DNA from: Trypanosoma brucei
Lineage: Eukaryota
Direction: 5' to 3'
Assembly: GCA_000002445.1 (NCBI GenBank)
Contig: CP000069.1
Coordinates: 896,001-960,000, forward strand
Length of the DNA: 64,000 bases
Part shown: positions 4,273 to 10,566 of the stretch, piece by piece
Position numbering within the stretch: the first letter of the stretch is position 1
How the letters are laid out: every line of letters starts with the position of its first letter
Position numbers and translations under genes: made by a program
Notes under the pieces: generated by a model
Told to the model about the DNA's origin: nothing
The model's database searches: none
What the model saw: only the letters and a program-made list of their open reading frames with translations

Positions 4273-6759
4273 ATGAGCTGGAAATATTCGAATCAGGAGA
4301 AGTTATTTTTGCTTCGCAAATGGCCCGAGCTACTGGAAGACGCCATTAACGTTGATGGGGAACTCAGTCTTCCGAAAGATGAAGTCGGTGGGGCTGGAAG
4401 ACAGGCCGATGCAGCGAAAAACAGTTTCAACTTTAGTCCAACATTTCGGCTTCCATTCAAGGCTTGGGAGGCAATTTTCACGCTACTAGACAATATCGCA
4501 CCCACAGACCTGCCGTCTCAACTGTGTGAGGAGCTTCACTCCGTTTACGGTGTTAATCCACTCATCGCACTTATGGTACATTCGTGTTGTTGGTTTGACA
4601 AAGGCATTGATGACAAAGTTTTCAGTGATCAGCTGTCCAGCTTAAGCGGAGTCACGAAGGAACTTCAACTTCAGTCGCAAAATTACAGTATGCCAAGTGA
4701 TCAAAAGGGAGCGCTGGATGCGGCGACCGTCGCGACAGGTATCCTAATCGATGTGCTTTCCTTGAGGAAGCGGTGGGATGAGGGATCTGAGGGCACTGAA
4801 CGAGGCGTAGAGGAAGCAATTAATAGCCTTATTGAGTGGAGTGCTCCGAAGAGACCTGTAATTGAACTTGCGCGTGCGCTCATTGTAGGAGTTGTTGCGT
4901 ATGCCTACGTTAAACCTCAATTTGCTGCCGCTGCAACCAACTTACTGAGAAAAGCGCAAACGTCTGTGAATGAATCCATGGTCGAATGCACTAGGTCCCG
5001 CAGCGGCCGTAGCACCGAAGCTGTTTCTCCCTACAACATAACTGATTGGCGTGTCGTAAAATGTCTCGAGACGGAACTGGTGCTTAGGCAAAAACACCAA
5101 GATATCAGTGACTTTCTCAGTGCGACAAATCGTTGGTGGTTAACGTTACCAGAAACGAATCCTTTTAAAGAGAAAAAAGGTTCTCGCACGGTGAGCGCTG
5201 AGGAACGCTGGCATGCTGTGCGTTCCAGGTATGTTGGGCAGCAACATGTTTGGTCGTCACTGATTGAACATTTCCTTAGTATTGGTGTAGTGGAAGCGGT
5301 TAAACCCACTGTCATTGTTCTCTTTGGGCCGTCGGGCTACGGGAAGTCTGAAATGGCACGGCTCATTGCGTGCGCGCTTCATAAGTGTACCCCTAGCGAG
5401 GCTGAGACGGAGGGCCATTTGGTACACATTCACTTACCGTCGTTTTGTACGCGAGACTCCATCTACTCGCTAGTTGATCCACCTGCAGCTCACATAGGTG
5501 AGGGAATACTCCTTTCAGCACTGCGTAGGAATAAGGAGGCAGTTGTGGTACTTGACGAATTCGAGAAGGGGAGTGCAGAGGCAATTCAGAACTTGTGGTT
5601 ATCCGCCTTTCAAAAACATGGCACGTTGCGGTCCTTGAAGGATGCGGCACGATCTATTTCAACAGAGCGGGTTACCTTTGTACTAACTTGTAACATAGCC
5701 GCTGATGTTATTGCTTCCGATGAGGAGCGCTATTTGAAAGCCTCCAATGAAAAGGAACGGGCGGCGATGCGCGCAGAGTGGACAAAGATATGCATGGATG
5801 TGTGTCGTAAAACGATGCATGATCCGTTTGTCAATCGAGTTGACTACTTCTTTCCCTTCGTGCCGTACACAGTGGAAGAGAAGCAGCAGTTTGTGAAACT
5901 TCAACTCTCCCGCATCATTGAAGATCAGCGAGTGAAAGGGGTGCACATGTATATTGCACCACAGTTGGTCAGGGTGCTTGCCGATCAATTGCAAACGTTT
6001 CACTCGTCGAATATTGAAGGGATATTGAGGCCGTTGTTAATGAAGATATATCAGAAGAAGTGGAAAAAGGCGGTCATCACAGTTGAAGAGAGGATAAACT
6101 GTCATTCGTATGTTGTTATCCCTGCTTCTGACTCGGAAGGGGGAGAAATACCGTGGACCTCAATGCCAGGTGGCGCGAGCTCGTTGGAACATTATGATGG
6201 CCCGGAAAGAACTGGAAATCATTCAGCCGAGAGGCAACAGCGGCGCACAGTAGAGCAGGAAGCCACCAACAGTATCGAGAGTTCTCGCCGGAGTAGTAAA
6301 ATTGCTTCAAACTCACGCGGAAATTCACGTTCAGCAAACCACACCCGAACGTCACAGGTGGCACAGTCTGCGGACTGCGCCATGCTTCTAGAAACGGACG
6401 TTGAGCGGGAACTGAGACTAGAGTTGGAAAAGGCTACAGAGCTGCTACTGGAGAAAGACAAGGAAATTGAGTGTCTGAAACATAAAGTTCTTCTGTTAGA
6501 AAGAATTGTGGCAGTGCTATTGGCAACCACACTATGTTTTATGCTTCTTCTCTCCATGATTATAGGTACAAAAATGGTTCTTATCTTGGCTGTTGCTCTA
6601 ACGGGTTTCATGTCCCTACTCGTTGGAATGCCCTTGAAGCTCTTAATAGGTGCTTTAAGAACCCTTTATAGTGTTCTCGGCCCCATGGGTTCTGCAATCG
6701 CATTTGGTATTATGTCACTGTGGTTGTCGAATGCTGTTCGCAGTGTAGCAACCTGTTGA
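4273..6759 (+). CDS. AAA+ ATPase with a single ClpB-D2-like (AAA_2) module, a C-terminal coiled coil and 2-3 transmembrane helices
   Basis: Walker A VLFGPSGYGKSEMARLIA. Walker B/sensor region VVVLDEFEKGSAEAIQNLWLSAFQKHGTL. VTFVLTCNIA and FVNRVDYFFPF align to the ClpB D2 motifs (GxTGVGKTEL, DEIEKAH..LLQVLDDG, NTVIIMTSN, FxNRIDEVVVF). The hydrophobic C-terminal 90 aa give a predicted membrane anchor. Confidence 0.65.
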   Translation: MSWKYSNQEKLFLLRKWPELLEDAINVDGELSLPKDEVGGAGRQADAAKNSFNFSPTFRLPFKAWEAIFTLLDNIAPTDLPSQLCEELHSVYGVNPLIALMVHSCCWFDKGIDDKVFSDQLSSLSGVTKELQLQSQNYSMPSDQKGALDAATVATGILIDVLSLRKRWDEGSEGTERGVEEAINSLIEWSAPKRPVIELARALIVGVVAYAYVKPQFAAAATNLLRKAQTSVNESMVECTRSRSGRSTEAVSPYNITDWRVVKCLETELVLRQKHQDISDFLSATNRWWLTLPETNPFKEKKGSRTVSAEERWHAVRSRYVGQQHVWSSLIEHFLSIGVVEAVKPTVIVLFGPSGYGKSEMARLIACALHKCTPSEAETEGHLVHIHLPSFCTRDSIYSLVDPPAAHIGEGILLSALRRNKEAVVVLDEFEKGSAEAIQNLWLSAFQKHGTLRSLKDAARSISTERVTFVLTCNIAADVIASDEERYLKASNEKERAAMRAEWTKICMDVCRKTMHDPFVNRVDYFFPFVPYTVEEKQQFVKLQLSRIIEDQRVKGVHMYIAPQLVRVLADQLQTFHSSNIEGILRPLLMKIYQKKWKKAVITVEERINCHSYVVIPASDSEGGEIPWTSMPGGASSLEHYDGPERTGNHSAERQQRRTVEQEATNSIESSRRSSKIASNSRGNSRSANHTRTSQVAQSADCAMLLETDVERELRLELEKATELLLEKDKEIECLKHKVLLLERIVAVLLATTLCFMLLLSMIIGTKMVLILAVALTGFMSLLVGMPLKLLIGALRTLYSVLGPMGSAIAFGIMSLWLSNAVRSVATC

Positions 6760-7516: not shown

Positions 7517-8239
7517 ATGAGTAGCGACAGTTCAGACTCAGAAAAAAGGTTACTTGCATATAAAGTTATTGTTGTTGGTGATGGCGCTGTTGGTAAGACA
7601 TCGCTTATCCGCCGTTACTGCGTAGCGGACTATGGCTCCAATTACAAACAAACTATCGGTCTTGATTTCTACTCAAAAGAAGTTCTACTTCCAGGAAAGC
7701 AAGACGTGAAAATGGAAATATGGGACATTGGAGGACAACAAATTGGTGGTACAATGATTGACAACTACATCATGGGGGCCCACGCCATTTTCTTTGTGTA
7801 CGACGTAACAAACAAGGATTCCTTTAAGAATATAGAAGATTGGCATAGTTGTGTGCGCGACTCTTTGGCTAAGCATGCAAGGGAGACAGCGGAAGAAGGT
7901 GCAGCTGCGGTGGAACCACTCATTGTGTTAGTAGGCAACAAGGCAGATCTCCCTAATCGTCAAGTGTCGGATGCGGATCACATGAAGATGGCGGAGATGC
8001 ATCGGATGGAGTCATGTGTCGTGTCCGCCTGCTCAGGGGAGCGCGTCAATGCGCTCTTCACGCAGTTGGCAGCGACTCTAAGCGGCGTGCGCCTTCCTGA
8101 AGATGCGCTAAATTTGGAAGAGCGCGTCGTTGCTAATTTGCAGTTACTGCCCGAGGACTGTGTGGGGCCAGGGGTTTCTGGACCGGGTGGAGGAAAGGAA
8201 TGTGGAAAAAAAAAGAAGGGTAAATGCGCAGTGATGTAG
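7517..8239 (+). CDS. RAB28: RAB28-type small GTPase
   Basis: G1 GDGAVGKTS. Effector YKQTIGLDF. Atypical switch II WDIGGQQIGG, which is diagnostic of Rab28 (compare human WDIGGQTIGG). NKAD. Polybasic stretch followed by the C-terminal CAAX box CAVM. Confidence 0.8.
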   Translation: MSSDSSDSEKRLLAYKVIVVGDGAVGKTSLIRRYCVADYGSNYKQTIGLDFYSKEVLLPGKQDVKMEIWDIGGQQIGGTMIDNYIMGAHAIFFVYDVTNKDSFKNIEDWHSCVRDSLAKHARETAEEGAAAVEPLIVLVGNKADLPNRQVSDADHMKMAEMHRMESCVVSACSGERVNALFTQLAATLSGVRLPEDALNLEERVVANLQLLPEDCVGPGVSGPGGGKECGKKKKGKCAVM

Positions 8240-8885
8240 TGGTAGCGACAAGAAAATTTCCGCCTTTACCTGTTTGTTGTCTTTTTAAAATATTCTTACT
8301 CATTGTTTGCGTTCACACATGAGAATAACTACCTTTTATTATTGTTGTTATTGTTCCTACCCACCAATGTCACGCAGTAGGTGTTTTATGCGGGCTTGTT
8401 CCCCTTTTGCTTCTTTCCCCCTGCTTCTGTTCCTTCTTCGCACCGTATCCTCTTTCCATTTTTTCCTCTACTTTACTGGCGACGTGGAGTATGATTGGAA
8501 GAGGTAAACTTCATGGATTCGAATTTTGTTCCGTATGGAATGCGCGTCGACTCCCTCTGTTAGCAAACTTGGGTGTGACGCGTATGTCCCAGAATGTTTT
8601 TCTATTTATGCTACGGCAATGGGGAATATATCTTCTTTTTAAAATATCTTATATTCCTTTGTGACGTGTATGGTACACATATATTTTTTAATAGGTTTAT
8701 ATACTTATTTTTGTTTCTGAAGAATTGCTCCATTCGTTCGTTGTAACACTGATCTGTTGTTGGTTTATATATCTTTGGATTTTATTAATATGTTGTTTTC
8801 GTTTACTGTCCTGACTTACATTGTTTGCACTCGGTGCGCTAGTAAAGAAGAATTACAGGTAGAGGTTATCGTAGTTGTTGGGAGA

Positions 8886-8898
8886 TTTTTTTTTTTTT
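8886..8898 (+). promoter_or_regulatory. T13 polypyrimidine tract followed by AG upstream of the ALDH ATG
   Basis: ttttttttttttt then gacttAG, about 37 nt before the ATG at 8935. Confidence 0.45.
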
Positions 8899-8934
8899 GA
8901 CTTAGTAGGGATTCGTATTTCATATAACCATCAG

Positions 8935-10566
8935 ATGCCAGCAGGTGTTCCGGAGAATACCTCGTTAGAAAATATACCGACCATTGTTTCAAAATGTCGC
9001 GAGGCGTTCAACAATGACGCTAACAGGGATTTGAAGAAGCGGAAGCAGGTGTTAAGGTCTTTACTCAACCTTGTTGAAGAAAACACTGATGAATTTTGCA
9101 AAGCAATACACCGAGACCGCCGTCGCCACCGCGACGAAACGGTAGTAATGGAGATATTACCGTTACGTAACGAGGTGTGGCATTTAATTGAGCACATGGA
9201 CGAGTACGTTAAACCAGTTAAACCAACTATGGAGGGCGCTGCTGCTTTGGATGACTGCGAATTGCAGTACGAACCACTGGGCGTTGTGCTCGTTATCGGC
9301 ACTTGGAACTACCCGTTGTTGTTGATTCTCCAGCCTCTTTTGGGGGCTCTGGCCGCCGGTAATACAGCTGTTATTAAGCCGAGTGAACTTGCCCCCGCTA
9401 CAGCGGAGTTGTTAACAAAACTTTTGCCCAAGTACGTTTCTTCGGATGTTGTCGGTATTGTAAATGGCGGGGTAAGCGAAACAACAGCTGTGCTGAAGGA
9501 ACGTTTTGATCATATTTTGTACACGGGCAGTGCACGTGTAGCAGAGATTGTTATGGCGGCTGCAGCAAAACATCTTACGCCAGTTACACTTGAGTTGGGA
9601 GGAAAATCACCTGTTGTCGTTGACGATAGCTGTGCGGACAATATGAAGGTGGTAGCGGAGCGCATAATGTGGGGTAAAATTATCAACGCAGGTCAAACAT
9701 GTATAGCGCCTGATTACGTTGTCGTCGAAAAGTCTATGGAATCCGTGCTTGTTGATGCACTTGCTGAAGCTCGAAAGGCGATGTTGGGTGACAAGTTTCT
9801 TAAAGTACTTAAGGGAGAACTTCTGGTGAAGCAGAAACAACAGTTTTTGGAAGAAAGCGATTATCCGCGTATTGTCAATGCCAGTCATTTTCATCGTCTC
9901 ATGGAATTTATGAAGGGCGGAAAAGTAGCAGTGGGTGGAGAGGCAGACGAGGCAACTCTCACTATTGCTCCTACTATTCTCACAGACATTGACCCCACAC
10001 ACCCAGTGATGCAGGAGGAAATATTTGGACCTATTTTACCCGTATTAACGTATGAAAATGAAAAAGACATCCTTAAAATAATAAACAGCCGGGAGAAACC
10101 ACTGGCACTTTATGTCTTTTCCAACAATAAACGATTTATTAGAGGTGTTGAGTCGCGCACATCCTCGGGTGCCGTTGTGGTGAATGATGTTGTTGTGCAT
10201 GCGGGAGCAGATGGGTTACCATTTGGTGGCGTAGGACGCAGTGGCATGGGAGCCTATCATGGCCGCTACAGCTTCGAAACCTTTTCTCATCGGCGACCTG
10301 TTATGCGACGCGGGTTCTTTTTTTCATCTATCGACACCGTCCGGTTTCCCCCTTATACTACTGCAAAGTCTCGTGTTCTTAACAGTTTGCTGAAGCCATC
10401 GGCGGAAGTTGCTGGGGCTGTTGGGCGATCAGTTTGGGGTGTGGCAGCGCTGGCCAGAGTTGTTGAAGTTGGCTACCACTATATGCGTTTTTTAATGGCA
10501 GGTGAAACCACGCCTGCACCATCGTCATCAGAGCCTTTTTCTAAAGGTCCGAGGAGCAATGAATGA
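8935..10566 (+). CDS. aldehyde dehydrogenase, ALDH3/fatty-aldehyde dehydrogenase type, with a C-terminal hydrophobic tail
   Basis: ALDH motifs ELGGKSP, catalytic Cys region GQTCIAPDY, EEIFGPILPV. The ATG at 8935 follows a T13 tract. The track start at 8875 is a TTG translating that T-run. Confidence 0.8.
   Translation: MPAGVPENTSLENIPTIVSKCREAFNNDANRDLKKRKQVLRSLLNLVEENTDEFCKAIHRDRRRHRDETVVMEILPLRNEVWHLIEHMDEYVKPVKPTMEGAAALDDCELQYEPLGVVLVIGTWNYPLLLILQPLLGALAAGNTAVIKPSELAPATAELLTKLLPKYVSSDVVGIVNGGVSETTAVLKERFDHILYTGSARVAEIVMAAAAKHLTPVTLELGGKSPVVVDDSCADNMKVVAERIMWGKIINAGQTCIAPDYVVVEKSMESVLVDALAEARKAMLGDKFLKVLKGELLVKQKQQFLEESDYPRIVNASHFHRLMEFMKGGKVAVGGEADEATLTIAPTILTDIDPTHPVMQEEIFGPILPVLTYENEKDILKIINSREKPLALYVFSNNKRFIRGVESRTSSGAVVVNDVVVHAGADGLPFGGVGRSGMGAYHGRYSFETFSHRRPVMRRGFFFSSIDTVRFPPYTTAKSRVLNSLLKPSAEVAGAVGRSVWGVAALARVVEVGYHYMRFLMAGETTPAPSSSEPFSKGPRSNE

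Follow-up and report, generated by a model that had tools for sequence, protein, structure and literature searches.

Tb927.6.3030 of Trypanosoma brucei, an uncharacterized membrane-anchored relative of the ClpB/Hsp104 protein-unfolding motors

Introduction

Characterized Clp/Hsp100 motors of the D2 type are either soluble (ClpB, Hsp104, ClpA/C and Skd3) or, like the torsins, lumenal and dependent on a partner for catalysis. A gene at positions 4273..6759 (+) of a 64,000-nucleotide stretch of the T. brucei genome (contig CP000069.1, positions 896,001 to 960,000; this whole stretch is called the window, and all coordinates refer to it) raises the question of whether a motor of this type can also be fixed to a membrane by its own C-terminus, and if so on which side of the membrane it would work and with what kind of channel. 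A first-pass annotation, made from the DNA letters alone, had described the product as a tail-anchored ATPase built from a single module resembling the second nucleotide-binding domain (NBD2, or D2) of ClpB. The interval contains a single long open reading frame (ORF), which is complete and encodes 828 amino acids followed by a stop codon. Its translation is identical, residue for residue, to T. b. brucei TREU927 XP_845424.1 (UniProt Q583N1), which is Tb927.6.3030, entered in a published proteomics table as 'hypothetical protein, conserved' with a mass of 92.5 kDa.

The results below identify Tb927.6.3030 as an uncharacterized, membrane-anchored relative of the ClpB/Hsp104 protein-unfolding motors. 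Full-text searches with Tb927.6.3030, Tb427.06.3030, accessions from UniProt and RefSeq and the locus tags of several orthologues brought up no discussion of the protein in any paper; the literature mentions are limited to rows in supplements and to the presence of the Leishmania donovani orthologue, LdBPK_301700, in a list of extracellular-vesicle proteins (LdBPK_301700.1 is among the parasite proteins in extracellular vesicles from L. donovani-infected macrophages; PMC7652379, Table 2).

Results

The ATPase module

The kinship with ClpB D2 proposed in the first-pass annotation is borne out, at a level far above chance, by profile, sequence and structure comparisons. The Pfam family AAA_2 (PF07724) matches residues 347-524 with E=2e-11 (44.6 bits, vs a cut-off of 27), and among the NCBIfam families the best alignments fall on the D2 halves of ClpK, ClpV, ClpB and ClpA, with scores of 58-63 bits vs equivalog cut-offs of ~900-1900 bits. 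A single-sequence phmmer search of the PDB returns PfHSP101, ClpB NBD2, ClpC and human CLPB, the best with E ~1e-11, and a profile of the family matches ClpB in the PDB at E 1e-16. When an AlphaFold2 (AF2) model prepared from 35 family members (mean pLDDT 81, pTM 0.70) was compared with the PDB using Foldseek, as the annotation had suggested doing for ClpB D2 structures, Skd3/human CLPB (7tts, 7ttr) ranked first and Thermus thermophilus ClpB NBD2 next, with E-values of 1e-11 to 1e-9 and TM-scores of 0.65-0.73 on the target; the structural alignments to ClpB NBD2 cover 318-342 columns. The best combined sequence and structure match to ClpB NBD2 spans residues ~313-620. Because the profile, PDB sequence and Foldseek matches all lead to the same relatives, the ATPase of Tb927.6.3030 is assigned to the HCLR clade and to its D2 type. 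Only one Walker A motif is present in the protein.

The large (alpha/beta) subdomain of this module, of ClpB-D2 type by Pfam, phmmer, profile, AF2 and Foldseek, occupies residues 346-530 (5308..5862; this and all further features of the gene lie on the + strand). The motifs quoted in the annotation are all present within it at their expected places. Walker A, GPSGYGKS (residues 352-359, 5326..5349), carries K358, and G352, P353, S354, G355, G357 and K358 are invariant; Walker B, VVVLDEFEK (residues 424-432, 5542..5568), carries D428 and E429, with 10/10 positions at least 97% conserved. The sensor 1 strand, FVLTCNIA (residues 469-476, 5677..5700), was placed by alignment and conservation and contains N474, and the segment FVNRVDYFFPF (residues 519-529, 5827..5859) contains the invariant R522, which stands opposite the arginine finger of ClpB D2. 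The small subdomain follows at residues 531-620 (5863..6132) and is probably D2-small-like, as judged by profile, AF2 and Foldseek. The AF2 model shows helices and a beta-hairpin there, over residues 534-617, so that the D2-small element of the first-pass annotation appears to be included, as an alpha/beta unit; the Pfam scan gave no match to PF10431 in Tb927.6.3030 at E<=1.

These conservation values come from an alignment of 35 orthologues, whose identity to the T. brucei protein is only ~30%. The family consensus reads GPSGxGK[ST] for Walker A, LDEFEK for Walker B, TCN474 for sensor 1 and, for the arginine finger, R522 within xNRxD; K358, D428/E429, N474 and R522 are invariant or nearly so and align to the corresponding residues of ClpB D2. 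Since Walker A, Walker B, sensor 1 and the arginine finger are all kept across the 35 orthologues, the protein is likely an active ATPase.

Central channel and sensor 2

Two elements would line the central channel of a ring. Pore loop 1, YSLVDPPAAHIGEG (5464..5505), was located by alignments with ClpB and HSP101, which set His407 against the Tyr of the ClpB D2 motif GYVG. The loop reads D-P-P-A-A-H-V/I-G in 35/35 orthologues vs G-A-P-P-G-Y-V-G in ClpB; the Tyr with which the ClpB pore loop grips its substrate is thus an invariant His here, and the loop is not of the aromatic type. The second element, a pre-sensor-1 (PS1) beta-hairpin insert that is a hallmark of the HCLR clade, NLWLSAFQKHGTLRSLKDAARSISTERV (residues 440-467, 5590..5673), forms short strands in the AF2 model and aligns to 'GrltdgqGrtvdf' of ClpB D2. 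Invariant residues make up 18 of the 24 positions in the segment containing pore loop 1 (residues 390-413) and 14 of the 28 in the insert, compared with 3/290 in the N-domain and 0 in the transmembrane (TM) helices. Pore loop 1 and the PS1 hairpin are conserved as strongly as the Walker motifs, and no part of the protein is more conserved than these channel-lining elements. This distribution argues that the channel may well be in use, engaging a partner that would itself be conserved.

The sensor 2 region departs from ClpB as well. The profile alignment, whose reliability here is modest, places TFHAS opposite VYGAR of ClpB; F576-H577 is invariant at the site of the ClpB GAR motif, and the column facing the GAR Arg is variable, with no Arg conserved. 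With His standing for Tyr in the pore loop and no Arg aligned to that of GAR, the label 'disaggregase' would not carry over directly from ClpB.

The same two replacements lend some color to a torsin-like role, in which a ring or smaller oligomer would use ATP binding and hydrolysis as a switch that remodels or frees a membrane-associated partner complex and would not thread polypeptide. Two further observations point the same way: distantly related, C-terminally anchored proteins carry aliphatic pore loops, e.g. GPPxGIxG, and a pairwise BLASTP against a hand-entered human torsinA sequence gives 35 bits and 20% identity over 241 residues. Such a role is nevertheless judged unlikely. Walker B DE, sensor 1 and the arginine finger are intact in Tb927.6.3030, whereas torsins have no arginine finger of their own; the pore loop is the most conserved element, which would be unexpected for an unused channel; and the absence of a signal peptide and the evidence for myristoylation given below point to the cytosol. 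Neither the Torsin family PF06309 (Pfam, E<=1) nor any torsin chain among the PDB matches was found, so that the comparison with torsins drawn in the first-pass annotation is weak at the thresholds used.

Linker, coiled coil and membrane anchor

The ATPase module is joined to the C-terminal region by a disordered linker rich in Ser and Arg (residues 645-699, 6205..6369), with pLDDT<50 over residues 647-699 and a conservation of 0.24; in some orthologues this poorly conserved segment is longer by hundreds of residues. A coiled-coil stalk follows (residues 700-744, 6370..6504), as had been predicted: in the best heptad register of residues 700-745 the a and d positions are hydrophobic at 10/13 places, and the AF2 model has one unbroken helix over residues 695-764, which runs from the stalk directly into the first TM helix. 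Two more helices follow in the model, at 766-783 and 788-827.

TM1 (residues 745-764, 6505..6564) and TM2 (residues 768-784, 6574..6624) are both free of charged residues in the 35 orthologues, TM1 also standing out in the Kyte-Doolittle profile, and are linked by a conserved G765-x-K767 turn. They are followed by an amphipathic helix (residues 786-804, 6628..6684; hydrophobic moment, muH, 0.45) that has a polar face at 789/793/796/800, with a conserved basic residue at 796, and ends in the conserved L802-G803-P804, and then by a short hydrophobic helix (residues 805-822, 6685..6738) with a charge-free core at 807-819. Kyte-Doolittle means over a 19-residue window reach 2.5-3.3 in 35/35 orthologues, and hydrophobicity is kept throughout the TM region while sequence conservation is low, as in lipid-facing helices. 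Given charge-free stretches of 20 and 17 residues, and hydrophobicity that is conserved amid low sequence conservation, the C-terminus is, on this evidence, a genuine membrane anchor of ~84 residues, composed of several helices and including a TM hairpin. The C-terminal membrane anchor of the first-pass annotation therefore stands, but the label 'tail-anchored' does not apply in the strict sense of a single span: the 2-3 TM helices expected there resolve into two charge-free TM segments, an amphipathic helix and a short hydrophobic helix over residues 745-822. The most economical topology would place both termini on one side of the membrane.

The AF2 model packs the last three helices together, as they would be if the hydrophobic C-terminus were the buried core of a soluble helical bundle and the protein were not bound to a membrane. 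This explanation was rejected and is hardly credible, as charge-free helices of such length and hydrophobicity persist in 35 divergent orthologues with the conservation pattern typical of lipid-facing helices, and the protein is recovered in organelle-enriched fractions.

The chain ends in Cys828 (6754..6756), which is preceded by basic residues and is matched by Cys in 34/34 orthologues that reach that column; it could be a site of S-acylation or a disulfide partner. This Cys is the last residue in Trypanosoma and the penultimate one in Leishmania, and elsewhere lies within a CTC or PPC ending. Prenylation was considered and rejected, because there is no CaaX context and a Rab-like CXC ending occurs in few orthologues only.

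N-domain, N-myristoylation and orientation

The N-domain (residues 1-290, 4273..5142) is family-specific and all-alpha, with ~11 helices; the AF2 model is entirely helical over residues 1-283. In agreement with the first-pass annotation, which had seen no recognizable motif in the N-terminal region, there is no Pfam match and no specific fold relative in the PDB. The extreme N-terminus of the family, in contrast to that of the T. brucei protein, is distinctive: 29/35 orthologues begin M-G-x-x-[LIF]-[ST], the motif of N-myristoyltransferase (NMT), and among those that do not start with MG several are truncated or mis-started gene models. Proteins of the T. brucei group (Trypanozoon) start MSWKYS, with Gly2 replaced by Ser, and have lost the motif. 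In some assemblies of this group an 816-residue product beginning MLRKWAELL is called instead, which suggests that constraint at the extreme N-terminus may be relaxed there.

In Leishmania the motif was hidden by annotation. The reference models of L. donovani BPK282, L. infantum JPCM5, L. major and L. mexicana (857-860 residues; P0097-P0099, P0025 and P0023) start 111 residues after the MGTFLSRQ start that is found in newer L. donovani assemblies (P0011, P0100), and so lack the MG motif. The L. donovani orthologue, LdBPK_301700.1, annotated as 'AAA domain (Cdc48 subfamily), putative', was nonetheless quantified by Wright et al. (2015; PMC4372256, Table S4) in 4/4 samples labeled with YnMyr (log2 LFQ 22.4-23.1; MS/MS counts 2, 2, 4 and 4), and in 0/2 myristic-acid controls and 0/12 samples treated with either of two NMT inhibitors. 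Its 'MG' column in that table is empty because the truncated model was used. Once the start is corrected, the tagging, seen at the level of the whole protein, fits a true NMT substrate, and the Leishmania orthologue seems to have been overlooked as one. A search of the T. cruzi N-myristoylome with the accession and the N-terminal peptide gave no match.

The N-terminal sequence is hydrophilic, without a signal peptide. NMT works in the cytosol, and the MG motif and NMT-dependent tagging of orthologues, together with this lack of a signal peptide, imply that the N-domain and the ATPase are cytosolic. Most members of the family would then be attached to the membrane at both ends.

An arrangement of this kind also recalls membrane-shaping or tethering factors such as atlastin and mitofusin, and the AAA+ module might drive tethering or the dynamics of contact sites in place of unfolding; in one variant separate membranes might receive the myristate and the TM anchor. 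The resemblance lies in the order of parts (a catalytic domain, a coiled coil running into TM1, a tight TM hairpin and a conserved amphipathic helix ending LGP) and in the position of the lipid and TM anchors at opposite ends of the protein. It is an analogy of layout alone, the protein not being homologous to dynamin-like GTPases; all known D2 modules of the Clp type are polypeptide motors or derivatives of these, and T. brucei dispenses with the myristate. We regard a tethering function as improbable.

Expression and cellular location

In procyclic T. brucei, Tb927.6.3030 is represented by 3 peptides in organelle-enriched fractions in the published proteomics table. There it carries no flag for the mitochondrial reference set (1,238 proteins, with the outer-membrane proteome included) or for the ATOM40-dependent importome; this one proteomic resource therefore speaks weakly against the mitochondrial outer membrane.

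This result bears on a role resembling that of Msp1/ATAD1, namely an extractase on the mitochondrial outer membrane or the glycosome that clears mistargeted or stalled membrane proteins. An AAA+ protein that faces the cytosol and is anchored in a membrane invites the comparison, and in most species a myristoylated N-terminus would turn the substrate-intake face of a Clp D2 ring towards the membrane. Apart from its absence from both mitochondrial sets, however, TM1 is long and strongly hydrophobic (Kyte-Doolittle values to 3.3 in orthologues), which would be more like an endoplasmic reticulum (ER) anchor than an outer-membrane one, and the ATPase is of another clade than Msp1, the classical AAA family PF00004 scoring 20.9 bits on Tb927.6.3030, just under its cut-off of 21.2. 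An extractase of the Msp1 kind accordingly seems a poor prospect for this protein.

Family distribution

In the first search, orthologues were found across Trypanosoma, Leishmania, Leptomonas, Phytomonas, Angomonas and Strigomonas, and in metagenomic and transcriptomic sequences, and the E-values fell abruptly from 1e-80 to 1e-11 where the bacterial ClpC and ClpB proteins begin. An exhaustive profile search was then run against 1.84 billion representatives, a library without taxon labels for which the source names were combined separately. It extends the family to the prokinetoplastid Papus ankaliazontas (P0102), with the pore loop DPPAAHVG, and to the euglenid Entosiphon sulcatum (P0105), whose protein starts with MGNYSS, has the pore loop DPPTGIQG and carries both the C-terminal anchor and the terminal Cys. 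As judged from these sequences, the family spans the Euglenozoa, kinetoplastids and euglenids alike. No mammalian sequence was among the matches of the two homology searches, the representative library carrying no taxon labels. One full member with DPPAAHVG (P0035) bears the EukProt label Colponema vietnamica, an alveolate predator; it most likely derives from kinetoplastid prey in the culture and not from a true alveolate gene.

Beyond the family proper lie looser relatives in protist transcriptomes and metagenomes (P0115, P0117, P0119, P0120, P0123, P0129, P0140, P0141, P0149, P0150, P0159, P0160 and P0223), of which one cluster, including P0120, comes from the MMETSP marine-protist transcriptomes. 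They carry one Walker A and a D2-like module, the ATPase being followed by hydrophobic segments, and they outscore canonical ClpB and ClpC against the family profile. Aliphatic pore loops (FFGPPxGIxG, WIGVPDGVKG) and different N-regions set them apart, and some have N-terminal hydrophobic stretches, possibly signal peptides. When these looser relatives were used as the seed of a profile search, only bacterial Clp/TssH-type ATPases were returned and no named homologues of the group. The architecture that the first-pass annotation called unusual is thus indeed absent among characterized Clp/Hsp100 proteins; unique it is not, as the orthologue search across eukaryotes proposed there reveals a family throughout the Euglenozoa, with looser anchored relatives in other protists.

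Genomic context

The genes flanking Tb927.6.3030 are concordant with its identification, with the 32-kDa Tb927.6.3020 upstream and TbRab28 (Tb927.6.3040) downstream. The ORFs nearby encode a protein with a PH domain and a Kelch propeller (36-1643 of the window), TbRab28 (7517-8239) and an aldehyde dehydrogenase (8875-10566), whose called start is TTG and whose real ATG is probably further downstream. The cumulative GC skew climbs steadily from 0.10 to 2.40 over positions 1-64000, and in the first 16 kb all ORFs of at least 150 residues but one are on the + strand; both features are consistent with a single unidirectional polycistronic transcription unit. Membership in a trypanosome polycistron being what joins these genes, the neighbors imply no functional tie to Tb927.6.3030.

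Discussion

Proposed mechanism

The reading that we favor, with confidence and doubt about evenly balanced, is that Tb927.6.3030 acts as a cytosol-facing ring ATPase on an endomembrane, where it pulls on or remodels a conserved protein client at the membrane surface. The C-terminal TM hairpin and amphipathic helix would hold the protein in the endomembrane, and in most species an N-terminal myristate would provide a second anchor, with the N-domain and ATPase lying in the cytosol. The flexible linker and the coiled-coil stalk of ~45 residues would tether the ring. After assembly of the ring, ATP hydrolysis would drive the elements of the central channel, i.e. the invariant pore loop SLVDPPAAHVG and the pre-sensor-1 hairpin, to grip, pull or remodel one conserved substrate, the outcome being an extraction or unfolding motor at the membrane surface. 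In Clp D2 rings the N-terminal face is the side of substrate entry, and the myristate, in the species that have it, may hold this face at the membrane. The sequence and published data show the domain plan, the clade of the ATPase, its intact catalytic motifs, the strong conservation of the pore elements, the hydrophobic anchor and, for the Leishmania orthologue, NMT-dependent lipid tagging, whereas hexamer formation, threading, the topology, and which membrane and which substrate are involved, are inferred; the suggestion of the first-pass annotation that the protein could be a membrane-associated extraction or disaggregation machine is a reasonable one.

Several observations weigh against this scheme. 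With His in the pore loop in place of Tyr, Phe or Trp, threading is not assured, and the sensor 2 arginine of GAR has no aligned Arg in the family. The long disordered linker means that the ring would not be rigidly placed against the membrane. T. brucei has no Gly2, so myristate is not indispensable and would not be essential to the mechanism. The lipid-tagging signal of LdBPK_301700 is of low abundance, and four proteins without MG that behaved in the same way were judged by the authors of the L. donovani study to be unlikely substrates (PMC4372256), a set that may include LdBPK_301700.1.

Significance

If the proposed mechanism is correct, a catalytically complete, anchored single ring facing the cytosol would represent a new coupling of an Hsp100 motor to a membrane. 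The invariant His at the site of the pore-loop Tyr offers a natural test of how far the gripping of a substrate depends on an aromatic 'paddle'. The family occurs throughout the kinetoplastid parasites (Trypanosoma, Leishmania), which makes it a candidate for a parasite-lineage-wide motor of Hsp100 type whose pore and whose coupling to the membrane are both unusual; the putative Leishmania NMT substrate, masked until now by a truncated gene model, bears on the target lists of NMT inhibitors. A bolder extension, offered tentatively and with less confidence than the mechanism itself, is that these proteins form an unrecognized branch of Hsp100, a doubly anchored (N-myristoyl and C-terminal TM hairpin), cytosol-facing single-ring motor whose His pore loop would take hold of one particular conserved membrane client, perhaps with a sensitivity to pH or metals, and which would serve as a Euglenozoa-specific machine for membrane-protein extraction or quality control. 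The family might, in addition, belong to a larger and so far undescribed superfamily of protist ATPases with a D2 module only and a C-terminal anchor, of which it would be the best-conserved member.

Comparison with known systems

With ClpB/Hsp104 NBD2 the protein shares Walker A and B, the sensor 1 Asn, the arginine finger in xNRxD, the pre-sensor-1 hairpin and, as the predicted structure suggests, an alpha/beta small subdomain. In contrast to ClpB/Hsp104, it has one Walker A and lacks Clp_N, AAA_lid_9, D1 and the M-domain (no Pfam or NCBIfam matches), has an invariant pore-loop His and no aligned GAR Arg, and has in addition an N-domain of a new kind, the coiled-coil stalk and the membrane anchor. 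Orthology to ClpB/Hsp104 was rejected on account of the single ring and of NCBIfam scores far under the equivalog cut-offs.

Skd3/human CLPB is the closest characterized design, with a helical-type N-domain followed by a single D2-type NBD, and is the top Foldseek match in the PDB. Skd3 is a single-ring disaggregase of the mitochondrial intermembrane space with a helical-repeat N-domain; its repeats are of the ankyrin type, its pore loop has the canonical Tyr, and the protein, made with a mitochondrial presequence, is soluble once processed. Tb927.6.3030, unlike Skd3, has neither an ankyrin match in Pfam nor a fold match for its N-domain in the PDB, faces the cytosol, carries a C-terminal TM anchor and lies outside the mitochondrial reference set and importome. 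Identity with Skd3 was rejected, as there are no ankyrin repeats and the protein is probably not mitochondrial.

Torsins are distant Clp D2 relatives, associated with membranes and with a non-aromatic pore loop, and to this extent resemble the T. brucei protein. They reside in the lumen of the ER and nuclear envelope, carry a signal sequence or a hydrophobic domain at the N-terminus, are without an arginine finger and need LAP1 or LULL1, whereas Tb927.6.3030 has an arginine finger and a cytosolic orientation; for these reasons, and for want of a profile or PDB match, membership in the torsins was rejected.

With Msp1/ATAD1 the analogy is one of function only: an AAA+ ring faces the cytosol from its tether in the membrane of an organelle. 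In Msp1, a member of the classical AAA clade, the tether is one N-terminal TM helix, whereas Tb927.6.3030 belongs to the HCLR clade and is anchored at its C-terminus by several helices. The looser protist relatives resemble it in their single D2-like module and C-terminal hydrophobic segments and differ in their aliphatic pore loops and in their N-regions.

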